This document shows positions 2,333 to 17,046 of a stretch of 33,143 nt of DNA, in pieces (the first letter of the stretch is position 1; every line of letters starts with the position of its first letter). This stretch comes from a virus. Both the position numbers and the translations under genes were made by a program. The notes beneath the pieces were generated by a model, which was given only the letters and a program-made list of their open reading frames with translations, had not been told where the DNA came from and made no database searches. Where the stretch lies: the UHGV virus genome UHGV-0358485; one strand, 5' to 3'.

Positions 2333-4004
2333 GCATATTGAAAATTGGTTCAAAGCTATAGAAGAAGGCACTATCAAGGTATGCAAAGAGCAATTATTGC
2401 TAAAAAAGTATCTAGAAGAAAGAGTCTTTACTAGAGAAGATATTTACTTCGATAAGCAAATGGTAGAGGATTCAATCAATATACCAGCACAATACTTTCC
2501 ATTTGAATTAATACCGTGGGAAAAATTTCTACAATGTTTTATTTATGGAGTCCGATGGAAAAAAGATAAAACGCTTGTGTTCAATAGATATTTAACTCTG
2601 ATGGGTCGAGGAAATGGCAAAACGGGTTATGCATCATGGAACAACTTCTTTCTACTAACCGCTAAACATGGTATTAAAAATTATAATATTGACATTTTTG
2701 CGAATAATGAAGATCAAGCCAAGACTAGCTTTGAAGACGTCTATCAAGTGATTAAAGCTCATCCTGATTTAGATAAAAAAGTATTTAAAGCAACCAAGGA
2801 AGTCATTAAAAATATTGCTACAAATAGCAAACTTCGTTATAACACGGCGAACGCTAGAACAAAAGATGGTAAACGGCCAGGAGCAAACCGCTTTGATGAA
2901 ATTCACGAAAATGAAGATTATTCAATGATGAATGTAGCTACTTCTGGTGGTGGTAAAATTCGAGATTATAGAGAATTTTATGATACAACTAATGGTCATG
3001 TTCGAGGTGGACCACTTGATGACATTATAGAAGAATCAAAAATGATTCTTTCTGGAGAACTTGGAATTGATAAGGATGGAGCAGAATTTTCTAGTTTGTT
3101 TCCATTTATTTGTCGCTTGGATAACGACAATGAAGTTGATGATCCTGACATGTGGGAAAAAGCTTGTCCAACTATTAATTACAATGCAGATCTAAAACGG
3201 AAAATGTTTCAAGAATACTCTCAAATGCAACGTAATGCTGGTTTAAGACTTACGTTCATGACGAAACGAATGAACAGACCAATGGAAGACACACGCTTTG
3301 CTGTAGCTTCATATGATGATGTTCTTCATACGAAAGAAAAAGAATTTCCTGAAAAAATGGATGAAGTGATAGGAACAGTCGATTTTGCTGATAGACGAGA
3401 TTTTGCCAGCGTTGGGTTGCTAGGAAAATATGATAAAGATGTGTATTTTACACAACATACTTTTATCCACGAATCAGCTCTTCGATTACAGAACATAAAA
3501 CGAGAGATTATAGATATTTCTATAGATCAAGGTAAATCACAGATCGTTCATGGGAAAAATATAGAAGCTGATTATATCGTAGGTTGGTTTCTTGAAATGA
3601 GTAATAAATATTACATTAAAAAAATCTCTATGGATATGTACCGTGCAAAAATATTGAAGCCCGCTTTAGAAGAAGCAGGTTTTACTGTAGAAATTGTTCG
3701 AAGCGGATCTGTTACACATGGTATGTTAAAAGATCTGGTTGATGACCTTTTTATTAATCAACGTTTATATTTTGGTGATGATGCAATTATGCGTTGGTAT
3801 TGCATGAATGTATATGAAGAGCATATTTCTAATGGGAATATACGCTATGAAAAAATAGAACCTGAAACTAGAAAAACGGATGGCTTTTTTTCATTCCTTC
3901 ATGGTTTGAATTTTTTAGATGATATTTATGATTCTGCTCCTGTAACAGTCACAAATAGCTCAGTAGAAAATACAGGAACTGGATTTACTCCTCTAGTATT
4001 CTAA
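2301..4004 (+). CDS. terL: Terminase large subunit
   Basis: 567 aa. ATPase P-loop-like LMGRGNGKTGYAS. Acidic nuclease-type C-terminal half. Overlaps the TerS stop. Confidence 0.9.
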   Translation: MKQMNQFLSYKHIENWFKAIEEGTIKVCKEQLLLKKYLEERVFTREDIYFDKQMVEDSINIPAQYFPFELIPWEKFLQCFIYGVRWKKDKTLVFNRYLTLMGRGNGKTGYASWNNFFLLTAKHGIKNYNIDIFANNEDQAKTSFEDVYQVIKAHPDLDKKVFKATKEVIKNIATNSKLRYNTANARTKDGKRPGANRFDEIHENEDYSMMNVATSGGGKIRDYREFYDTTNGHVRGGPLDDIIEESKMILSGELGIDKDGAEFSSLFPFICRLDNDNEVDDPDMWEKACPTINYNADLKRKMFQEYSQMQRNAGLRLTFMTKRMNRPMEDTRFAVASYDDVLHTKEKEFPEKMDEVIGTVDFADRRDFASVGLLGKYDKDVYFTQHTFIHESALRLQNIKREIIDISIDQGKSQIVHGKNIEADYIVGWFLEMSNKYYIKKISMDMYRAKILKPALEEAGFTVEIVRSGSVTHGMLKDLVDDLFINQRLYFGDDAIMRWYCMNVYEEHISNGNIRYEKIEPETRKTDGFFSFLHGLNFLDDIYDSAPVTVTNSSVENTGTGFTPLVF

Positions 4005-4023
4005 CTTGAAAGGAGGTGAGAAA

Positions 4024-5202
4024 GTGGGGATTTTTCAAAAGGCGGTAGGATACTTCACAAAAAAAGCAACGGTTCCTTTAGAAGAATACTTTTGTAAATT
4101 GCAAGTTGATTTTGTGTATCGAAAATTTGCGATTGAAACTTGTATTGATTTGATTGCAAATGCGATGAGTAAAGCAGAATTCAAGTCATATGAAGATGGA
4201 AAAAATAAAAAGAATGATCTGTACTATAGGCTGAATGTAGCTCCTAATAAGAAAAATAATGCAACAGAATTTAGAAAAAAACTGATCAGGAGATTAATAT
4301 TCTACAATGAAGTATTGATCGTTTCTCCATCTAATAATTCTAGCGAAATATTTATTGCGGATAGTTGGGATGTCACAGAATATGCATTGAAAGATGATGT
4401 GTTTTCTCAAGTGCAAATTAACAATATAGTCCTTGATAGAGAATTTCTAGAAAGTGATGTTATCTATATAAAATACGCAGATCAACAAATTAGGCAACTA
4501 GTTGATGCGTATTATCAAGCGTATGGGAAACTCATTTCTAGTGCTATGAATGTTTACAAGCGTTCTAACGCTCGTAGATACGTACTGAAAGGTAATTTAT
4601 TCCGTTCGCAAGACAATACAACACAAGATCAAATCAATAAAATGATGACATCGCAGTTCAAACCATTCATGGAAGCGGACAATGCAGGGGCAGTATTCCA
4701 ACTACAAGAAGGATTCAATTTAGAAGATTTCAGCGGAAACTTCCAAAGCAATTCAAGAGATATAAAAAACTTAATAGACGACATCTTTGAGATGACAGCA
4801 GCAGCGTTTCACGTTCCGAAAAACCTACTAAAGGGAGACATGAGTGGGTTATCGGATCAAGTGGACGCTTTTTTAATGTTCGAAATCATACCGATTGCTG
4901 AACTTATTCAGGATGCGTTTAACGCTAGTCTCTATGAAGCAGAAGAATACTTGTCAGGGAATTTTGTACGTGTGGATACAACTATGATCAAGATTACTAG
5001 CTTCAAAGATTTGGTTGACGCTATTGATGTAGGCATTAGAAATGGGGTATTTACAATCAACGAAGGAAGAGAACGCGTTGGAAATGATCGCTCTGATAAG
5101 GCGATGGCAGATGAAATATTTATAACTAAAAACAACCAACAAGTATCGAAAGGAGGTGAGGCGAATGACAACAATGAAAACATTTCTAGCAGTAAAGAAT
5201 GA
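4024..5202 (+). CDS. Portal protein
   Basis: About 392 aa directly after TerL. RBS AAAGGAGGTGAG at 4009-4020 and GTG at 4024. The track TTG at 4006 lies inside the RBS. Confidence 0.85.
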   Translation: MGIFQKAVGYFTKKATVPLEEYFCKLQVDFVYRKFAIETCIDLIANAMSKAEFKSYEDGKNKKNDLYYRLNVAPNKKNNATEFRKKLIRRLIFYNEVLIVSPSNNSSEIFIADSWDVTEYALKDDVFSQVQINNIVLDREFLESDVIYIKYADQQIRQLVDAYYQAYGKLISSAMNVYKRSNARRYVLKGNLFRSQDNTTQDQINKMMTSQFKPFMEADNAGAVFQLQEGFNLEDFSGNFQSNSRDIKNLIDDIFEMTAAAFHVPKNLLKGDMSGLSDQVDAFLMFEIIPIAELIQDAFNASLYEAEEYLSGNFVRVDTTMIKITSFKDLVDAIDVGIRNGVFTINEGRERVGNDRSDKAMADEIFITKNNQQVSKGGEANDNNENISSSKE

Positions 5203-5851
5203 AGGCACAGTACCGCAAATTTTTATTCAGGGATTTATTGGTTCTAGTTGGTTCTTTGAAGGGAATACTGACAAGGGAATCAAAAATATTTTGGATAGTC
5301 TAGGTGATCAAGAAGAAATTGAAGTAGTGATTAATTCAAACGGTGGAGACGTATTTCAAGGGATTGCTATTGGGAACTTACTTAAGTCAAATAAAGCAAA
5401 AGTTAACGTTGTGATTAACGGCTTAGCCGCTAGTGCTGCTTCAATTATCGCAATGGCTGGCGATACTATAAAAATCTACAACAATGCACAATTGATGATT
5501 CACCGCGCTTCCACATATGGAGAAGGAAATGTCGATGATTTTCGCACGATTGCTGACCAACTGGAATCAATTGATAAATCGGTAAAGGCTTCATATAAAA
5601 CACGATTCAACGGTACAGATGAAGCATTGCAAGAACTTCTTGAAAAAGAATCGTTTATGGATGCAGAAACAGCTTTGAGTTATGGATTGGTCGATGAAAT
5701 TATCGATGCAGAAAATAGCGCAGGTACTGAAGCTAAGAAAGAACAAAGCGTTGAAGAAATTTTGAATGACGTTGAAGAAAAAAGAGCAGAAAAAATTGCT
5801 GCATTTACAGCAGCATTAAATAAAACATTTGGACAAGGAGATGCAAAATAA
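5165..5851 (+). CDS. Prohead (head maturation) protease, ClpP/S14-like, with a helical C-terminal extension
   Basis: Motif VINSNGGDVFQGIAIGN...GLAASAASIIAMAGD...MIHRAS is a ClpP-type Ser-His protease core. RBS AGGAGG at 5151-5156 and ATG at 5165. Confidence 0.85.
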   Translation: MTTMKTFLAVKNEGTVPQIFIQGFIGSSWFFEGNTDKGIKNILDSLGDQEEIEVVINSNGGDVFQGIAIGNLLKSNKAKVNVVINGLAASAASIIAMAGDTIKIYNNAQLMIHRASTYGEGNVDDFRTIADQLESIDKSVKASYKTRFNGTDEALQELLEKESFMDAETALSYGLVDEIIDAENSAGTEAKKEQSVEEILNDVEEKRAEKIAAFTAALNKTFGQGDAK

Positions 5852-7011
5852 TGACAGTTAAAAATTTAAAAGGTGTAACAGCTGCAAGCGACCAATTGAT
5901 GAAAGCTTTTAAAGATGGTAACGAAGAATCTTTTAGCGCAGCTATGGTAAGTTTATCTAAGGAAATTCAGGATAAAATTTTAGAAGAAGCAACAGCAAAA
6001 AATCAAGATCAATTAGTATTAATGAACCGTGGTCAGCGTGTACTAACTACACAAGAAACAAAATTCTATAACGAAGTAGTGAATAACGAAGGTTTTGCAG
6101 GAGTTGAAGAATTAGTACCAGCTACTGTATTTGAACGCGTATTTGAAGATCTAGAACAATCTCATCCACTATTGCAAAAAATTACTTTTGTTAACACAAC
6201 TGGTGTAACAGAATGGATTGTGTCACGTGGAGTCAATCCAGCATGGTGGGGTAAACTTTGCGAAGCTGTTAAAAAAGTTTTAGATAATGGCTTTGACGTA
6301 ATTAACATGAAGCAGTTCAAGCTATCAGGTTATATTCCTGTATGTAAGGCAATGCTTGACTTAGGTCCAGTATGGTTAGATCGTTATGTCCGTACTGTTT
6401 TAGTAGAATCATTGAGAATTGCATTAGAACAAGCAATCGTTGATGGTACTGGTAAAGATATGCCAGTCGGAATGATGCGTGATATGAGCAAACAAACTAG
6501 CGGAGAATATGCTGAAAAAACAGCAGAACCTATTACAGCTTTAGATGCTGCAACTATGGGCGGTTTGATGGCGCGACTATCGAAATTCAATATCGAAGGT
6601 GTAGATGATCCGATTTATCGTAATGTAAATCCTTCTGATGTAGTCCTAATTGTGAATCCAACAGATTACTGGGCTAAAGTTTTCCCAGCTAAGACTGTAC
6701 TAACTGCTAATGGAGAATATGTACAAGTATTGCCAGTACCAGTTTCAGACTTGCAGTCAACTGCTGTGCCAGAAGGAAAAGCAGTTATTGGGGTAGCTTC
6801 AGATTACTTTATGGGTGTAGGATCTACGCTGAAAATTGAAGCTTCAGATGAATACCATTTTGTTGAAGACGAACGCATTTATCTAGCTAAACAATATGCA
6901 AATGGGCAACCTAAACGCAACGATAGTTTCATTGTGTTAGATATTAGCGCTTTGGGAACTACTACTACAACTACAAAACCAACAACCACAACAACTACAA
7001 CACAAGCGTAG
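5851..7011 (+). CDS. Major capsid protein. Unusual C-terminal tail GTTTTTTKPTTTTTTTQA.
   Basis: 386 aa immediately after the prohead protease. ATGA overlap with the protease stop. Poly-Thr tail encoded at 6955-7008. Confidence 0.75.
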   Translation: MTVKNLKGVTAASDQLMKAFKDGNEESFSAAMVSLSKEIQDKILEEATAKNQDQLVLMNRGQRVLTTQETKFYNEVVNNEGFAGVEELVPATVFERVFEDLEQSHPLLQKITFVNTTGVTEWIVSRGVNPAWWGKLCEAVKKVLDNGFDVINMKQFKLSGYIPVCKAMLDLGPVWLDRYVRTVLVESLRIALEQAIVDGTGKDMPVGMMRDMSKQTSGEYAEKTAEPITALDAATMGGLMARLSKFNIEGVDDPIYRNVNPSDVVLIVNPTDYWAKVFPAKTVLTANGEYVQVLPVPVSDLQSTAVPEGKAVIGVASDYFMGVGSTLKIEASDEYHFVEDERIYLAKQYANGQPKRNDSFIVLDISALGTTTTTTKPTTTTTTTQA

Positions 7012-7020
7012 GTGATCAGA

Positions 7021-7896
7021 ATGAAGTATATTCTTTGTCAGCCGGCAATCAATCGGTTTAAATGGGAGCTTGAAGTTTGTTTAACTAATCTGAAGAAACT
7101 AGGAATCAAAGATATCGTATTGCTTTTCAGCAGACACGATGATCAGATTCCTATTTTTTTTGAGAAGGAATATGGCGTTGAAGTTCATGTGTACGATGAT
7201 CTGCGGGACGACAAAGAGTATATTCCTTCGATTAAACCATATTTATGGTGGAAATATTTAGAAGAAGATCATTCGCGTGAGGACGATCGATATTTCTATA
7301 TCGATTCGGATGTCATTTTCAATAAAAGAATTAATTTGCGCAAATTGCCTTCTAAAGATGATGTTTGGTATTGTAGCGACTGCTGTAGTTATTTAAGTCT
7401 TGATTATATTAGAAGCTGTGAAAACGGAGAAAATATTCTAAAAGATATGGCAAACATTGTAAATGTTACAGTAGAATCTTTGGAAACTATAAACACTAAT
7501 TCAGGAGGCGCACAGTGGGTTATTAACCGTCCTAAAGCGAATTATTGGAAAAAGGTTTATCTAGATTCTAATCGGCTATATCGCTACCTTAGAGGGCAAA
7601 AAACAAATTTACAGATTTGGACAGCCGAGATGTGGGCACAGCTTTGGAACATGATGTATTTCAATATTGGTCCTAAAGTTCACGAGGAATTAGACTTTTG
7701 TTTTGCTACCGATCCAATAGAAAAAGTTAAAGAAGTAAAAATCTTACACAATGCTGGAGTAACAACAAACGATGAAGATTTATTTTTCAAAGGGAGATAC
7801 GTGACTTCTACGCCTTTTGATGAAGATTTATCATTTGTAAACAAGAAAAAATGCTCTTACGCATATGTTAAAGCAATTAAGGCGGTGGTTAGATGA
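7021..7896 (+). CDS. Putative GT-A-fold (GT8-like) glycosyltransferase. Candidate virion-protein glycosyltransferase.
   Basis: DxD-type motif RYFYIDSDVIF. Downstream NSGGAQWVINRPKANYWKK resembles the GT8 FNSGV..IN..KWR motif. C-terminal ILHNAG resembles the GT8 H-x-G..KPW region. No TM segment. ATG at 7021 with AGGTGA upstream; GTG at 7012 is also possible. Motif-based call only. Confidence 0.45.
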   Translation: MKYILCQPAINRFKWELEVCLTNLKKLGIKDIVLLFSRHDDQIPIFFEKEYGVEVHVYDDLRDDKEYIPSIKPYLWWKYLEEDHSREDDRYFYIDSDVIFNKRINLRKLPSKDDVWYCSDCCSYLSLDYIRSCENGENILKDMANIVNVTVESLETINTNSGGAQWVINRPKANYWKKVYLDSNRLYRYLRGQKTNLQIWTAEMWAQLWNMMYFNIGPKVHEELDFCFATDPIEKVKEVKILHNAGVTTNDEDLFFKGRYVTSTPFDEDLSFVNKKKCSYAYVKAIKAVVR

Positions 7897-8204
7897 CGCC
7901 TGAACAAGTGACTGAAGAATTGCTAATAGCTGTGAAGGATAATATTTACGTTACCTGGAACGAAGAAGATGAGTCAATTAAAAAGATGATAGCTAAAAAT
8001 GCTGTTTATCTTCAAAGTAAAGTGAGTACAACACTTTCTTTTTCTCCTGAAAGCTTAGAATACGGATTGCTAATCGAAAGATGTAGATACGACTGGAATC
8101 GTGCTTTAGATGAGTTTGAACAAAATTTTGCTAGTGAGTTATTAGGTTTCATTCAACATTATGCGCTACAAGAATATATTGCAGGTGATGGGAATGGCGA
8201 ATAA
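7893..8204 (+). CDS. Head-tail connector (gp6/SPP1 gp15-like)
   Basis: 103 aa. ATGA overlap with the previous gene. First of the MCP-to-MTP small-protein series. Confidence 0.55.
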   Translation: MTPEQVTEELLIAVKDNIYVTWNEEDESIKKMIAKNAVYLQSKVSTTLSFSPESLEYGLLIERCRYDWNRALDEFEQNFASELLGFIQHYALQEYIAGDGNGE

Positions 8205-8547
8205 TCGTAGACTCGAAGAAACATTCAACGATGGTTGGTTAAAGATTTTGACGCAAACTACCAAAAGAAATGAACTAGGAAAAAAGATTGGTGTAGAAGA
8301 TACAGAAATCACTTCTTTAAAATTTAGAAATCTTTCCATGAGAGATAGTGATATAACAGCTATGGATGCGATGGGATCGAAATTAACTAAGAAAGTAAAG
8401 ACTCCATTTCATCCAATCGCCAAGAAATTTAATAAAGATCAATATTTTATCGTAATCGATAGTATGCGTTACAACGTTATCTATGCCGATTACGATAATT
8501 TTTATATCTATTTTTATCTTGAAAGTGTGGGTGAATATGGTGATTGA
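8194..8547 (+). CDS. Head closure / head-tail adaptor protein (SPP1 gp16-like)
   Basis: About 117 aa. ATG at 8194 or 8188, overlapping the previous stop. Typical size and position. Confidence 0.5.
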   Translation: MANNRRLEETFNDGWLKILTQTTKRNELGKKIGVEDTEITSLKFRNLSMRDSDITAMDAMGSKLTKKVKTPFHPIAKKFNKDQYFIVIDSMRYNVIYADYDNFYIYFYLESVGEYGD

Positions 8548-8938
8548 TAATTCTAAAGAAAAAGAACGTTTAAATAAGCAAATTTCTGCTATCAAAACTT
8601 CCTTAGAAGAACATTTTGGCCTCAAACTCTTTCAAGACTCCGTAGGCGAGGATGAGCTACCTGATGATTTTAATTACTTCATTCTCGAAACAGGAGAAAT
8701 AGAAATGATCACTGAACCAAAATATAGCGTGGGTCAAAATCTATATCTAACTTTCTATTCAGAAAATAGAGAAGATTTAACAGGAGATTCACTAGATATT
8801 ATTTCATTGATTCAAAATCGTTCGATTCGTTTTCAGAGAATGGATCCCAACCATTTAAAACTAGAAAATCAAGATCGCTATATCGATCAATTGGTATTTA
8901 CGTTTAGACGATTATTGAAGAGTGATTGTCATGGCTAA
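8537..8938 (+). CDS. Head-tail joining / neck protein
   Basis: 133 aa. ATG at 8537. Position in the neck gene series. Confidence 0.45.
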   Translation: MVIDNSKEKERLNKQISAIKTSLEEHFGLKLFQDSVGEDELPDDFNYFILETGEIEMITEPKYSVGQNLYLTFYSENREDLTGDSLDIISLIQNRSIRFQRMDPNHLKLENQDRYIDQLVFTFRRLLKSDCHG

Positions 8939-9335
8939 AAATAGTTGGGAGCTAAAAATAAATGGACATGATGAACTTCTTGTGCGGATGGAACGCTATT
9001 CAAGCGAGAGCGAACGACTGATTAACGAAGCATTGAAATCAAAAGGTTCAGATATTGCAGTGGATAGGATTACGGAAAAAATTCCTGTTTCTGAAGCAGA
9101 TTTAAGAAGAGGACACCAACACGCAAAAAATAGTCGTCCACTTAAGACTCAATATATTAATTTGGGTTTCATCATTAGACCTACAAGAAAATTTGAGTAT
9201 TTAAAATATCCTGATTTGGGGATAGGTACTTCTAAAAGAAATCAGCCAGACGAATTTATGAGAAGAGGATTAGGTCTTGCACTTGATCCAATTACAGAAC
9301 TTCTGATTCGTCAATTCGATAAATTAAATAAATAG
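8931..9335 (+). CDS. HK97 gp10-family-like tail component (tail terminator/completion)
   Basis: 134 aa. N-terminus ELKINGHDELLVRM resembles the gp10-family start. Lies immediately upstream of the MTP. Confidence 0.45.
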   Translation: MAKNSWELKINGHDELLVRMERYSSESERLINEALKSKGSDIAVDRITEKIPVSEADLRRGHQHAKNSRPLKTQYINLGFIIRPTRKFEYLKYPDLGIGTSKRNQPDEFMRRGLGLALDPITELLIRQFDKLNK

Positions 9336-9346
9336 GGGGAACAACA

Positions 9347-9952
9347 ATGGCTAAAACAACAACTGTAGTAACAACGTTCGATAACGTGAGTATCAAACGA
9401 ATTGCTTTTAATTTTAAGAACGCAGAAAATGCAATCGCAACAGATTGTAACGGACAATTAGATGGCGAAACAGAAATGCAAACGGTGGTTAAAAAATGTG
9501 GAGCGACAGAAGTAAAATCAAAATCTAAACCAATCAATATGACGGTAACAATTACTGCACATGTACCGATGGAAGTTTATCGACGTTTCAATGGATTGAA
9601 ACAAGATGAACGTATTAAACCAGGCATTTACTCTTACGGTCCTGATTCCGTAGGCGAAGATTTCTCACTTGCTGCAGAGATCGTGGATGACTTCGAAGAA
9701 AATAGCAAGTTAGTTGGTATGTTAGCATGCACTTCGAATACAGGATTAACATTCTCTATTGAAAATGGTGCGGATGAAGTAGCTGCGTTAGAACTAGAAA
9801 CAAAAGTTATGCAAGATGAATTTGGTAAATTCTATCATGAAGCAATTGTTGCAGAACTTGAAGAAGACTTAACAGATCAATGGATGACGAATCTATCTGC
9901 TGATGTGATTAAAAAGAGTTCAACAACCACTACTACAACGACTCAAGCTTAA
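9347..9952 (+). CDS. Major tail protein (phi13/TP901-1-like). C-terminal tail SSTTTTTTTQA.
   Basis: 201 aa. RBS GGGGGA. Lies upstream of the chaperone and TMP. Poly-Thr-QA tail encoded at 9917-9949. Confidence 0.75.
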   Translation: MAKTTTVVTTFDNVSIKRIAFNFKNAENAIATDCNGQLDGETEMQTVVKKCGATEVKSKSKPINMTVTITAHVPMEVYRRFNGLKQDERIKPGIYSYGPDSVGEDFSLAAEIVDDFEENSKLVGMLACTSNTGLTFSIENGADEVAALELETKVMQDEFGKFYHEAIVAELEEDLTDQWMTNLSADVIKKSSTTTTTTTQA

Positions 9953-14007: not shown

Positions 14008-14745
14008 ATGACTGATTGTATACATTCTATAATCGATGGATTTCCTGATTATTTGCATAAATTGGCTTTAGCTGAAAGACCAACCATACCTTCTCCAAAA
14101 AGACAGAGAGTTGAAACTTCTGTTTTAGGAAGGTTAGGTGGCTTAGTGCAAGATTACTCGTTTGAAGACATGTCGTTTACATTGCACTATAACTATTTAG
14201 AGGATGTGGAAGACCATCAAGCGTTCAAGCAATCGTTTTATATCATGCGTCATTGGTTAAACTATGCAAAGAAATTAGAATTTTCTGATGATCCCAATGT
14301 CTATTATGTTATCCAGACTATCGATATTGGGGATGCGGAAAACGATATCGTTGAATGGGGAGAGTTCGATGTAAACATTACTGCGAAACCATTCGCAAGA
14401 GTTCAAGAAGATGTGCCTATAACTGTAGATAAACCACGGTCATTTAGCTTGCTTAATAATAGTTTAGAAGAAAGTTTTCCAAAGATTATCATCACTCCTT
14501 CAGCTACTTCATGTCAGTTCATCTTAAATGATTATGTGTTTAGTTTTGAAGGCTTAGTAGTAGGAACTGACATAGTCATTGATAGTGATCTAATGCTTTG
14601 CTACGAAGAGCAATCGGACGGAGATATTTTAGATCGGTCCAACAAAATGAAGACCATGCAATATCCGACATTGCAAGTGGATATTAATTATTTTAATTGT
14701 ACTGGTTTGAGCAAAATACAAATTTATCGTAATGGGTTAAGGTAG
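14008..14745 (+). CDS. Distal tail protein (Dit)
   Basis: 245 aa immediately after the TMP. Typical size. Confidence 0.7.
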   Translation: MTDCIHSIIDGFPDYLHKLALAERPTIPSPKRQRVETSVLGRLGGLVQDYSFEDMSFTLHYNYLEDVEDHQAFKQSFYIMRHWLNYAKKLEFSDDPNVYYVIQTIDIGDAENDIVEWGEFDVNITAKPFARVQEDVPITVDKPRSFSLLNNSLEESFPKIIITPSATSCQFILNDYVFSFEGLVVGTDIVIDSDLMLCYEEQSDGDILDRSNKMKTMQYPTLQVDINYFNCTGLSKIQIYRNGLR

Positions 14746-14754
14746 GTGAAATAG

Positions 14755-17046
14755 ATGATCGATAATTTAATAACTATTTACGATAAAAACGACGCGAATA
14801 ATTTAACTGAACATTTATATGATACGCAAGGTTTAGGTGCTTTATCAGACTGGTTAACAGCTACTGTTAGCAATAAATTAAACGGAGCCGAGATATTTCA
14901 GGGTACTTATCCAATAAGCGGAACTAATGCAGACTTGATTATAGAGGGGCGTATTATTCAGTGCTATGTAGATGAAAATCGAGCAAAACAGCGTCTACGG
15001 ATTTATTATGCAAAGACTTCCGTAATAGGAAATACGATAGAAGTAAAAGCTGAACCTATTTTCAATGATATAAGAAAATCGGTGTTGAATAAATATGACA
15101 GCGGAACAGAAAAGATCACTGCTACTCAGGCATGGCAAAACGCAAAAACTTTAGCGAAACCAGCTATCCCTTCGCAGTTTTCTTTCTCATCGTTAGTAGA
15201 TACGCTTGCTAATGTGAAGATAGAAAAAGCGAATTTTTTAGAATTCTTTGGTGGAAAAGAGGGGTCTATTCTAGATCGATTTCATGGGGAATTTCTTAAA
15301 GATAATAACACATTACGTCATGAAAAAAGGCTAGGTACGGATCATAAAATCAAAGCGATTTATACTAAAAACTTAACTGGTCTTGACTTAGAGATAGATG
15401 CTCAAAGCGTTTTAGTTGGAGTTTATCCATTCATTAGCAGTTCTTCAGAAGGAGAAGACGAGATCACTCTACCAGAAGAAGTTATTTTCACGGATTACGT
15501 GGATGATTATCCTGCTGGATATGTTTCTTTTGTTGATTTTAAAGACAAAGCGACTGATGTAGCCTCATTAAGGGAAGCTGCTAAAGACTGGTTGAAAACA
15601 AACATAGATAAACAAAAACCACAAGTGAGTGGTTCGATTGAATTAGTACCATTAAGGCATCAGAGAGGCTATGAAAAATTTGTTGATTTAGAAAAAGTTT
15701 CGATGGGCGACGGAGTAGATGTGTATCATCCACAGTTAAAAGTGAATATGTCAGCGAGAATTGTGGAATATACGTTTAATGTTCTAACCAATTCATACGA
15801 TAAATTAGTTGTAGGAAACGTCAAAACAAACTTCTTAGAAAACACAGAGAATAATGTCAGCAATTTGATTAATGATGCCATTGATCAATTGAAAAATGGT
15901 GGCGAAATCAGTGATTTAATCAATGATATTGTAGATCATCAAACTGATATGATTACTGGTCAAGATGGTGGCTATGTTTTATTAGATCCTAAAGAAGCAC
16001 CTAGTCGTATTTTAATTATGGACACGCCAGATAAGAATACTGCACGGAATGTTTTACAAATCAACAACGCTGGTATTGGTTTCTCTAAAACTGGTATTAA
16101 TGGAACATATGAAACGGCATGGACGTTAGATGGCGGATTCAATGCCTCGTTTATTACAGCTGGTGAGATAGTAGGGATTACTATTAGAGGTACTACATTA
16201 ATTAGTGATGGTGCTGATTATAGAACAAGTATTGCTAATGGCAAAATGACTTGGTACTCAAAAAAAGTTAACAAAGATATTATGGAGCTAGAAGCACGTG
16301 ATTATGTAAGTGCTGATGCCGGTATTGTATCATACACCATGAAAACTGGTGGTGGTTTCATGATTAGAAATCCACAGGGTAACTTGGTTTTTAGTACGTG
16401 GGATAATGGTAATAACAGACCGTTTTTATCTTTTGGTGCGCCAAATTTCAGATACAGTAATGCTAGTTATATAAATGATGGTGACGGTAATTCTTTAGGT
16501 ATTGATGGTAGTGCAGGTAATTCATGGGAATTTAAAGTAGCTGGTAGGACTATGAAATTTACTAGTGACGGTATGCTAACGTTACCAGGTTGTTTTTTTG
16601 GTTCATGGGAAGATGGGAAACTTGCTAGGTTTGAACAATCAACGGTACAAGTATATAAAGATTTTACTGTTAGAGGTACTAAAAACTCAACCGTACCAAC
16701 AGAACATTATGGACAACGACTATTAAACGCTTATGAAACTCCAGAATATTATTTCGCTGATTATGGGGAAGCCGTTACAGGTGATAATGGTAAAGTTCGT
16801 GTTGATATTGACCCCATGTTTGCTGAGACAGTAAATCTAAGTCGGTATATGACACATGTGACACCTACAGAGCTAGTTTTGTGTGCTGTTACTCATGAAG
16901 ATATTGACCATTTCATCATTGAAACTAGTAAGCCAAACGTATTAGTTAGATGGAATTTAGTGGCACACCGTCTAGGGTATGAAGATATTAGATTAAAAGA
17001 GGATACAGCATATGATAGCACAGTGCTTGACCAAAAACGTTTTTAA
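14755..17046 (+). CDS. Tail-associated lysin / tail endopeptidase-family protein (Tal)
   Basis: 763 aa after Dit. N-terminal region typical of siphophage Tal (prophage tail endopeptidase family). Confidence 0.7.
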   Translation: MIDNLITIYDKNDANNLTEHLYDTQGLGALSDWLTATVSNKLNGAEIFQGTYPISGTNADLIIEGRIIQCYVDENRAKQRLRIYYAKTSVIGNTIEVKAEPIFNDIRKSVLNKYDSGTEKITATQAWQNAKTLAKPAIPSQFSFSSLVDTLANVKIEKANFLEFFGGKEGSILDRFHGEFLKDNNTLRHEKRLGTDHKIKAIYTKNLTGLDLEIDAQSVLVGVYPFISSSSEGEDEITLPEEVIFTDYVDDYPAGYVSFVDFKDKATDVASLREAAKDWLKTNIDKQKPQVSGSIELVPLRHQRGYEKFVDLEKVSMGDGVDVYHPQLKVNMSARIVEYTFNVLTNSYDKLVVGNVKTNFLENTENNVSNLINDAIDQLKNGGEISDLINDIVDHQTDMITGQDGGYVLLDPKEAPSRILIMDTPDKNTARNVLQINNAGIGFSKTGINGTYETAWTLDGGFNASFITAGEIVGITIRGTTLISDGADYRTSIANGKMTWYSKKVNKDIMELEARDYVSADAGIVSYTMKTGGGFMIRNPQGNLVFSTWDNGNNRPFLSFGAPNFRYSNASYINDGDGNSLGIDGSAGNSWEFKVAGRTMKFTSDGMLTLPGCFFGSWEDGKLARFEQSTVQVYKDFTVRGTKNSTVPTEHYGQRLLNAYETPEYYFADYGEAVTGDNGKVRVDIDPMFAETVNLSRYMTHVTPTELVLCAVTHEDIDHFIIETSKPNVLVRWNLVAHRLGYEDIRLKEDTAYDSTVLDQKRF

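Follow-up and report, generated by a model that had tools for sequence, protein, structure and literature searches.

Why does a gene for a 291-aa protein stand between the capsid and connector genes of a phage whose capsid and tail-tube proteins both end in a run of threonines? The virus genome UHGV-0358485 raises this question within the stretch of DNA analysed here (33,143 nt in all, hereafter the window). Our answer is that a phage-encoded transferase quite probably O-glycosylates a portable C-terminal poly-Thr tag. The features concerned are the following:

5851..7011, + strand: major capsid protein gene (MCP, HK97 type), 386 aa (PF05065, E 1.5e-16; phrog_10, E 9e-64; TIGR01554)
6958..7008, + strand: C-terminal tail of the MCP, TTTTTTKPTTTTTTTQA, with 13 Thr, proposed glycan acceptor, read from sequence
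7010..7014, + strand: Shine-Dalgarno-like AGGTG, overlapping the MCP stop, 6 nt before the transferase ATG
7021..7896, + strand: putative protein O-glycosyltransferase, GT-A fold, GT8-like, 291 aa, PHROG 4417
7303..7311, + strand: D95-S-D97, DxD motif, predicted metal and nucleotide-sugar ligands, invariant in 42 diverse homologs
7498..7515, + strand: NSGGAQ motif with invariant G163, A164 and Q165 (homolog alignment)
7747..7794, + strand: H243-N-A-G ... F-F-K257-G258 with invariant His, Lys and Gly (homolog alignment)
9347..9952, + strand: major tail (tube) protein gene (MTP), 201 aa (phrog_117, E 7e-19)
9917..9949, + strand: C-terminal tail of the MTP, SSTTTTTTTQA, second proposed acceptor, read from sequence

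A preliminary description of this DNA had noted identical heptathreonine-Gln-Ala tails on the two proteins, encoded by DNA stretches that differ synonymously, and all of its statements on these sequences hold. The MCP reading frame terminates in GTTTTTTKPTTTTTTTQA and a stop codon at 6955-7011, that of the MTP in SSTTTTTTTQA and a stop codon at 9917-9952. Six differences separate the final 27 nt of one gene from those of the other, 6/6 synonymous. The MCP tail is appended past a conserved core ending ...DISALG, and the MCP homologs of PK5.2 and BMBtp13 end 6-8 residues beyond the same ...LG; OP745419 lists the counterpart of this ORF as a major capsid protein. The MTP is 41% identical to PSA Tsh and 43% identical to the PK5.2 major tail protein. 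Because the two tails are the only Thr runs in the ORFs of the window (at least 40 aa, all six frames), they lie far beyond chance. Among near-identical prophages with a readable MTP tail, the tail is absent in one and present as a degenerate TSVVTTTATQSQ in 28; the MTP tail, at least, is therefore dispensable.

The 291-aa ORF at 7021-7896 is real, as had been supposed: Enterococcus phage 4995_1, 98% identical, carries it as an annotated CDS, and the homologs of its product form 904 clusters (at 90% identity). The protein matches the PHROG 4417 profile over its full length (E 3.8e-156, residues 1-289 on positions 1-291 of 293), a family listed with "unknown function". Its assignment outside the canonical head-neck set agrees with the syntenic phages PSA, PK5.2, BMBtp13 and A40, which have no such gene and in which the MCP is followed directly by small connector genes. 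The AGGTG over the MCP stop indicates translational coupling of the 291-aa gene to that of the MCP; the stop of the 291-aa gene in turn overlaps the start of the downstream gene (7893). The stretch between the MCP and transferase genes gave neither a promoter signal above background nor a terminator signal.

The predicted model of the 291-aa protein is a single Rossmann-like alpha/beta/alpha domain that matches solved GT-A structures, with GT8 enzymes as its nearest structural neighbours; GlyE, LARGE1, xylosyltransferases and LgtC are among the closest relatives. D95-S-D97 directly follows strand 90-93, that is, the end of the central strand, and H243 lies at the end of strand 241-243. The motifs YFYIDSDVIF, NSGGAQWVIN and ILHNAG, on which the preliminary description had based its call of a GT8-like GT-A transferase, are all present in the ORF. 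Of that call, the GT-A fold with the DxD at DSD (in the predicted structure) and the GT8 neighbourhood are borne out. The Pfam search gave no match for the protein, and 42 members of the family left PF01501 unmatched at E up to 10; the NCBIfam search was non-significant, and the PDB profile search found no transferase. A SKA1 match in the latter search (E 0.08) is spurious. Aligned against glycogenin with hhalign (probability 0.4%, E 0.16), the sole paired stretch was the DxD region with FMDAD. Among the annotation routes, structure prediction alone was informative. NSGGAQ resembles the NSGV/NAGV motif and catalytic-pocket Gln of GT8 enzymes, and H243...K257-G258 their HxxGxxKPW metal/diphosphate-binding motif with an insertion; both may be equivalents, as judged by motif resemblance rather than superposition. 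Where GT8 enzymes have the canonical KPW, the 291-aa protein has FFKG, and 9 residues are inserted. Since the protein has no significant sequence similarity to characterised glycosyltransferases, donor, linkage and even catalysis rest on the fold and the conserved residues.

These residues bear on whether the protein is an enzyme at all. A position among head and neck genes would be quite in keeping with a GT-A-fold protein that lacks catalytic activity and binds the Thr tails as an assembly factor or chaperone, or with a minor virion protein or a decoration protein. We consider this highly improbable, because the DxD motif and the His, Gln, Glu and Lys do not vary across about 900 clusters of homologs, a pattern typical of active enzymes. 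In addition, the annotated record of phage 1706 marks the neighbours as structural proteins and leaves the transferase-family gene unmarked, and the homolog in the LP65 record is not marked structural, unlike its neighbours identified by proteomics.

The association between gene and tail is family-wide and two-way. At least one Thr-tailed ORF lies within 5 kb of the gene in 72 of the 73 distinct carrier loci, and two or more in 52 of them; at the 73rd locus, the ORF directly upstream ends in a degenerate ...PQTTPATTAG. The gene is found directly 3' of a tailed gene, either that of the MCP or that of the MTP depending on the lineage. The tails, of 6-45 residues (median 16), are spread over unrelated protein families: they occur on capsid proteins (phrog_10, 544, 909) and tail proteins (phrog_117, 88, 238, 6686, 14018), and also on a portal (phrog_64) and a connector-like protein (phrog_749). 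Five relatives that lack the gene (PSA, PK5.2, BMBtp13, A40 and phiEf11) have no Thr runs. Together with the GT-A/GT8-like fold, the association supports the overall reading of the preliminary description, that of a candidate virion O-glycosylation system. In the reverse direction, 6/120 random T8-coding stretches from IMG/VR adjoin a family member, the baseline being roughly 570 carriers among 2.9 million contigs, which counts in favour of the association. Poly-Thr by itself is no predictor of such a system: the majority of runs coding for poly-Thr in viral contigs have no link with the transferase family, lie internally or are out of frame. No Thr runs lie near the distant homologs LP65 orf49 and SAC12B gp125, which fall outside the tail rule.

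Such distant homologs would fit a genuine glycosyltransferase with another acceptor, either host wall teichoic acid or polysaccharide precursors (for superinfection exclusion or receptor masking, cf. prophage TarP/Gtr) or phage DNA, the Thr tails being unglycosylated hydrophilic spacers or bristles. Prophage-encoded GT-A enzymes such as S. aureus TarP do modify teichoic acids, and the fold alone does not identify the acceptor. This explanation nevertheless seems unlikely to us, as it accounts neither for the 72/73 co-occurrence, nor for the position beside tailed genes in structural modules that are not homologous, nor for the absence of tails from related phages without the gene. Conversion genes of the TarP/Gtr type have a moron-like position and their own promoter, are expressed in the lysogen and are confined to temperate phages; the present gene stands between those of the MCP and the connectors in the late head-tail operon, coupled to the MCP gene and with no promoter above background, and it also occurs in strictly lytic phages (Herelleviridae and 86-90 kb siphophages). 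As for DNA, the annotation of this Enterococcus prophage shows no genes for base hypermodification.

The tail ends of one phage undergo concerted evolution. The residues that follow the threonines are identical in 29/76 within-phage pairs versus 4% between phages. Most of the identical-end pairs are nearly saturated at synonymous sites, and the KKA and KKV variants represent outright gene conversion. The RA variants show no co-variation between MCP and MTP, and end-matching is thus a tendency rather than a rule. The common end motif raises a testable question about substrate recognition by the transferase.

We propose that the 291-aa protein acts as a cytoplasmic, metal-dependent and probably retaining (alpha-linking) nucleotide-sugar transferase, which would be expressed from the late operon alongside the virion proteins. 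Its targets would be the threonines of the short, disordered C-terminal poly-Thr tails on the MCP and tail-tube protein; in other phages, portal, connector or decoration proteins may be glycosylated as well. A genome of about 39 kb suggests a T=7 capsid, in which case a tail on every subunit would give thousands of glycosylated threonines per virion, a mucin-like brush. Within this scheme, we infer the attachment of a sugar, its type and linkage, any recognition of the tail by its free C-terminus and what the phage gains.

No second transferase was found in the prophage, and the priming role of the single one has to be assumed. Many GT8 enzymes extend glycans rather than prime protein Ser/Thr, and this holds for several of the structural neighbours named above, GlyE, LARGE1, xylosyltransferases and LgtC. 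The enzyme might merely extend or decorate a first sugar added by a host enzyme, or it might act on a different modification of the tails, for example phosphorylation. We find this improbable: a compatible priming enzyme would be needed in hosts as different as Enterococcus, halophilic Bacillaceae, Clostridium, Staphylococcus and Lactococcus, the prophage has one transferase only, and retaining GT-A enzymes can prime protein residues directly, as glycogenin and the clostridial toxins do.

Direct glycosylation of the tails by the phage enzyme may extend well beyond this locus. The family occurs exclusively in phages and prophages, and its carriers are hundreds of phages of Gram-positive bacteria, across the host range just given; Lactococcus phage 1706, phiFL1A, iLp84, PLE3 and Bacchae are among them. 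The presence of the gene in dairy, halophile and clostridial phages argues that antibody evasion is not its general role. A broader proposal, for and against which we find the case evenly balanced, is that poly-Thr plus a phage-specific end motif forms a portable 'glyco-tag', read (possibly via the free C-terminus) by a previously unrecognised family of GT8-like protein O-glycosyltransferases. Any virion protein acquiring the tag would then be glycosylated, and hundreds of Firmicutes phage lineages, siphophages and myophages of gut enterococci, lactobacilli, staphylococci, dairy lactococci, clostridia and halophilic bacilli, would carry a mucin-like sugar coat. Its role would be general (colloidal stability, protection from proteases or futile adsorption, mucus or matrix adhesion) and not antibody evasion.

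To our knowledge, phage virion glycosylation has so far been shown in mycobacteriophages only. If our reading is true, it is widespread in Firmicutes phages, among them therapy candidates that infect E. faecium, E. faecalis or relatives of S. aureus, and phages of dairy and probiotic bacteria. The system would be unlike that of the mycobacteriophages and much simpler, with an enzyme and a short tag as its two parts. Our reading would give a function to a large 'hypothetical' family, PHROG 4417 (about 900 clusters at 90% identity), and account for a low-complexity feature that stands out in many capsid and tail proteins. It would also bear on phage immunogenicity, pharmacokinetics and mucus interactions, and provide a small enzyme and tag with which proteins and phage particles could be glyco-engineered in the cytoplasm.

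A literature search found no comparable system of transferase and poly-Thr tail; details of the mycobacteriophage system come from secondary descriptions. In SDS-PAGE of phiEf11, the MTP (predicted 21.5 kDa) was observed at 28-30 kDa and the MCP as two bands (PMC5221750). We rejected these anomalies as indirect support, since phiEf11 has neither the gene nor a Thr run, and gel shifts alone are therefore not diagnostic. A glycostain study of ten phages detected no glycoproteins, the phages named there not being among the carriers listed here. The BH1 proteome paper held nothing relevant to virion glycosylation, and papers on JBD30 and an S. aureus prophage and an adsorption review concern pilus or teichoic-acid glycosylation, not virions.

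Among known systems, the retaining GT8 enzymes (LgtC, glycogenin, GlyE, WbbM; also the GT8-like GT24 UGGT) have no detectable sequence homology to the phage-exclusive 291-aa family and carry KPW in place of its FFKG and 9-residue insertion. PBCV-1 A64R and other giant-virus capsid GT-A enzymes belong to a eukaryotic virus, with atypical N-linked glycans on a jelly-roll capsid protein and no C-terminal poly-Thr tag. The glycosylated serine-rich-repeat adhesins of Gram-positive bacteria and eukaryotic mucin domains form a further group for comparison; the adhesin systems require a GT-B priming pair (GtfA/B, plus a GT8 such as GlyE) and an accessory Sec system for an acceptor of hundreds of residues, in contrast to one enzyme and a 6-45-residue tail here. 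Listeria phage PSA, whose syntenic module encodes a homologous MCP and MTP, 50% and 41% identical to those here, decorates the same C-termini by a programmed-frameshift recoded peptide extension instead of a Thr tail and transferase gene.

The mycobacteriophages offer the nearest parallel in outcome. Virion glycosylation was reportedly described in Che8, Corndog and Myrna by Freeman et al. in 2023, and C-terminal regions of capsid and tail tube are said to be the targets. Among the best 50 BFVD structural matches of the 291-aa protein there is no mycobacteriophage protein, which makes a close relation to Che8 gp110 or Corndog gp38 unlikely. According to published accounts that cite Freeman 2023, mycobacteriophages glycosylate capsid and tail-tube proteins by their own transferases (PMC12363180, PMC11256854), the genes of the Maravista/Che8 type lie near the right genome end (PMC11256854), and they often stand alongside methyltransferases (PMC13313380). 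In both cases the transferase is phage-encoded (here a putative one, assigned by its fold), the targets (here candidates, read from sequence) are the two most abundant surface subunits, and the outcome would be a glycan coat over the whole virion. The hosts, however, are Firmicutes rather than Actinobacteria, a single putative transferase of an unannotated family is present, its gene lies within the structural operon directly 3' of a candidate substrate gene, and the proposed acceptor, a poly-Thr tag of stereotyped form, has an end motif common within each phage. As read from its genes, the present system would thus parallel mycobacteriophage virion glycosylation but differ from it in enzyme family, acceptor and gene position.

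Three late genes are of concern in the window, a prophage that shares 98% identity with Enterococcus phage 4995_1 from E. faecium (OP745419).

5851-7011, major capsid protein (MCP), HK97-type (PF05065, phrog_10, TIGR01554)
7021-7896, 291-residue protein, candidate GT8-like protein O-glycosyltransferase
9347-9952, major tail protein (MTP; phrog_117), 41-43% identical to the annotated tail proteins of phages PSA and PK5.2

The MCP ends in GTTTTTTKPTTTTTTTQA and the MTP in SSTTTTTTTQA, and these are the only Thr runs in the window (ORFs of at least 40 residues, six frames). Alignment with tailless homologs places both tracts beyond the conserved ends of the proteins: the MCP reads FIVLDISALG followed by TTTTTT, where PK5.2 reads FLVFDITNLG and terminates with TETPTP, and the MTP reads ADVIKK followed by SSTTTTTTTQA, where a tailless homolog reads PELVKA and terminates with VPTP. 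The final 27 nt of the MCP and MTP genes show six differences, all of them synonymous, which bears out in full the preliminary description of a shared Thr-Gln-Ala tail encoded by synonymously different DNA.

The ORF at 7021-7896 begins 10 nt past the MCP stop codon, which is overlapped by a Shine-Dalgarno-like AGGTG, and its 3' end overlaps the next gene by 4 nt. Between it and its neighbours there is no promoter or terminator signal above background, and it is therefore part of the late head-tail operon. In the syntenic modules of Listeria PSA, Geobacillus PK5.2, Bacillus BMBtp13 and Enterococcus A40, the MCP gene is followed directly by small connector genes. The ORF is thus an insertion relative to the canonical head/neck set, and the earlier claim that it lies outside this set is upheld by the gene order of these four phages.

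Sequence searches with the 291-residue protein gave no match in NCBIfam or the PDB, and none in Pfam either for it or for 42 aligned members of its family (E up to 10); its sole profile match is PHROG 4417, of 'unknown function'. The AlphaFold2 model built from the 42-sequence alignment has a mean pLDDT of 96.5 and a pTM of 0.92. Foldseek matches it to WbbM, UGGT, GT6 alpha-3-GalT and ABO transferases, and glycogenin (E ~1e-7, TM ~0.5). In BFVD, beyond its own family (which includes LP65 Orf49), the closest viral structures are cyanophage and giant-virus enzymes of GT8 type, with no mycobacteriophage protein among the best 50 matches. Invariant across the family are D95 and D97 of the DSD motif, right after the strand 90-93, together with G163-A164-Q165, E203, H243-x-A245-G246 and K257-G258. 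We infer that H243 and K257 are the counterpart of the GT8 HxxGxxKPW motif and that Q165 and E203 match residues of the catalytic pocket. In an hhalign comparison with human glycogenin (sequence checked against PDB 3t7m), the sole aligned stretch pairs YFYIDSDVIF with CVFMDADTLV and is not significant (E 0.16). The protein is thus predicted to adopt a GT-A fold, with GT8 enzymes as its nearest structural neighbours and a catalytically plausible residue set, but it is not a GT8 member at the sequence level; the initial GT-A/GT8 call stands for the fold and not for sequence membership. That the protein is an inactive assembly factor is very improbable, being contradicted by the invariant catalytic-type residues.

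The family is widespread. Its 904 homolog clusters, all named hypothetical except 'Prophage pi2 protein 34', come from Enterococcus, Lacticaseibacillus, Listeria, Staphylococcus, Lactococcus, Clostridium and many halophilic Bacillaceae. The gene is present in 77 isolated phage genomes, including temperate siphophages (phiFL1A/2A, iLp84, PLE3, bIL285), lytic siphophages (1706, phiCTP1, the 86-kb Enterococcus 9183/nattely group and the 90-kb Staphylococcus Sextaecvirus group) and myophages (Herelleviridae of L. plantarum). Distant members, 26-33% identical, occur in Lactobacillus phage LP65 (L138, 20073-21101) and in SAC12B (L139, 19989-20966), where, within the replication region of these Herelleviridae genomes, they directly follow small virion proteins or Ig-domain proteins; no Thr run lies nearby, and their acceptor may be different. 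SAC12B has a second annotated glycosyltransferase, and LP65 also encodes the EPS sugar-transferase-like orf42. A Saccharimonadales MAG contig binned to a CPR bacterium (L129) carries a member at 5001-5873 whose upstream ORF is Thr-tailed (AASTTTTT), and a Poseidonia MAG contig binned to a marine archaeon (L132) has a partial match at 1-474 (39%); these two may be binning artefacts or reflect a broader host range.

The survey of gene and poly-Thr tail co-occurrence proposed in the preliminary description was run on 131 loci with relatives of the ORF (IMG/VR and species-representative genomes), then on seven isolated phages. Once duplicates were removed, 73 distinct loci were left, of which 72 have one or more ORFs ending in a Thr-rich tail no more than 5 kb away and 52 have at least two, in counts that ignore kinship; in the sole exception (L095), the ORF immediately upstream ends in PQTTPATTAG. 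Across the diverse loci surveyed, the gene almost always sits just downstream of a tailed gene, which is that of the MCP in Enterococcus, Lacticaseibacillus and Lactococcus prophages and that of the MTP in the phiFL phages, 1706, phiCTP1 and Bacillaceae prophages. Exceptions include L093 and L102, in which the MTP alone is tailed. Staphylococcus SA2 has a short Thr-rich ORF separating the family gene from the tailed MTP. In Enterococcus 9183 the MCP that precedes the gene is untailed, and a weak tail is present on the MTP alone. In phage Bacchae the gene is flanked by three small Thr-tailed ORFs distant from the main structural module. The proteins that bear tails are of unrelated families, with MCPs (phrog_10, phrog_544, phrog_909), tail proteins (phrog_117, 88, 238, 6686, 14018), one portal (phrog_64) and one protein resembling a connector (phrog_749) among them.

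Related phages without the gene served as controls. PSA, PK5.2, BMBtp13 and A40, the closest MCP/MTP relatives among isolated phages (MCP 41-50% identical, gene order shared), have no HMM match to the family and zero Thr runs genome-wide. Neither feature occurs in the first 22 kb of phiEf11, where its structural and lysis genes lie; the phiEf11 MCP ends in FPEADNVFQATVLPDSKK, and the homologous MCP of a carrier locus (L080) in FPEAENVLQAKVLVPGKTTTTTTSHA. The phiEf11 MTP (L265, 9121-9714) has been reported to run 6-8 kDa above its predicted mass, and the MCP as two bands (PMC5221750). With no transferase or Thr tails in this phage, these gel shifts are ruled out as a sign of Thr-tail modification, and shifts of this kind also arise in other ways.

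A reverse scan of IMG/VR for any run of eight ACN codons found a family member in the same locus for 6 of the first 120 stretches listed. About 570 of 2.9 million IMG/VR contigs are pattern-positive carriers, a lower bound because it depends on peptide patterns; the enrichment is therefore on the order of 100-fold or more. Most of the 120 stretches are unconnected with the family, being out of frame, internal or of giant-virus origin. The gene is thus a near-perfect predictor of the tails, but poly-Thr is a weak predictor of the gene. Other viral contigs from the scan (L145, L228, L240) have several ORFs with T8-T17 ends, with no family member within the short stretch fetched, and the tail in L228, TTTTTTTTVAPTTTTTTAA, has the same architecture as that of the window; either the gene lies beyond the fetched stretch or other transferases serve similar tags. 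An enzyme directed at cell-wall polymers or DNA, with the tails as bare spacers, would leave both the gene-tail association and the operon position unexplained, and we consider it unlikely.

Among 113 distinct tails, the median length is 16 residues (range 6-45) and the median Thr count 11 (66% Thr); often they consist of two Thr blocks with a Pro-containing spacer between them (KP, QP, VKP, EP), and their final residue is Ala in 47%, Gly in 18% and Val in 15%. In SA2 (L135), the 3' end of the MTP gene is overlapped by an ORF (14658-14930) that consists mostly of Thr/Ser runs of 16, 7 and 20 residues and that may be a frameshift extension that gives some tail-tube subunits a very large Thr tract; the prohead protease/scaffold ORF of the same phage (9874-10983) has three internal T7 runs. 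The holin-annotated orf3 of Lactococcus phage 1706 (L137, 461-865) has a T7 run five residues short of its C-terminus (VTTTTTTTVKEPE), without the HHD end found on that phage's capsid and tail proteins.

The residues after the final Thr run tend to agree between different proteins of one phage: QA/QA in the window, SHA/SHA in Lacticaseibacillus and L. cremoris prophages, HHD/HHD on the protease-capsid fusion and MTP of 1706, and SA, GA, KG, EAQ or AAGV in other phages. Ends are identical in 29 of 76 within-phage pairs versus 4.3% of between-phage pairs (counts ignore kinship). Where the last eight residues are identical, the DNA usually differs at 3-8 of 24 positions, near synonymous-site saturation, and the identity is therefore maintained at the protein level. 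Among near-identical Enterococcus prophages (L002-L066, L071, L072, L074; MTP region corresponding to 9917-9949), rare variants end in KKA/KKA (two loci) or KKV/KKV (one locus) with the last 27 nt identical in both genes, which indicates gene conversion between the tails; RA variants show no co-variation of MCP and MTP. In this set the MCP tail is always kept. Of the prophages with a readable MTP tail, 28 (26 + 2) have a degenerate one (TSVVTTTATQSQ or TSVVATTATQSQ), a state seen in about 44% of the near-identical prophages, and one MTP is tailless (ADVIKKLQL). One testable idea for the matching ends is that the transferase reads the free C-terminal end.

Based on the above data, we propose that the product of ORF 7021-7896 would be a cytoplasmic, metal-dependent, probably retaining nucleotide-sugar transferase, which would be produced together with the virion proteins and would O-glycosylate Thr residues in their C-terminal tails, resulting in a dense mucin-like glycan layer on capsid and tail tube. 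Such glycosylation is the best-supported explanation and, in our judgement, a probable one. The prophage annotation contains no further transferase or sugar-pathway gene; we give little credence to an enzyme that merely extends a host-primed sugar, or to tails that bear another modification.

In the literature searched, virion glycosylation is described only for mycobacteriophages Che8, Corndog and Myrna and predicted for other actinophages (PMC12363180, PMC11256854, PMC13313380). For Firmicutes phages, full-text searches gave no report of Thr tails or of glycosylated virions. The system proposed here from sequence and model resembles that of the mycobacteriophages in that a phage transferase would act on capsid and tail-tube subunits. 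It differs in enzyme family and host range, in its single gene placed inside the structural operon and adjoining the presumed substrate, and in its acceptor, a portable poly-Thr tag of stereotyped form whose end motif is matched within a given phage. The wide ecology of the carriers (dairy, halophilic, clostridial, gut) suggests that antibody evasion is not the general selective reason. The PK5.2 MCP (L261, 3981-5114) and MTP (6845-7432) both end in PTP. Listeria phage PSA (L260), whose MCP and MTP are 50% and 41% identical to those of the window, produces C-terminally extended versions of both (3976-5290 and 6712-7363) by annotated ribosomal slippage. With this frameshift extension on the same two C-termini in the PSA lineage, decorating these ends appears to be a solution that recurs by different routes, and the PSA/PK5.2/window lineage seems to use recoding in one case and a Thr tail with a transferase in the other.
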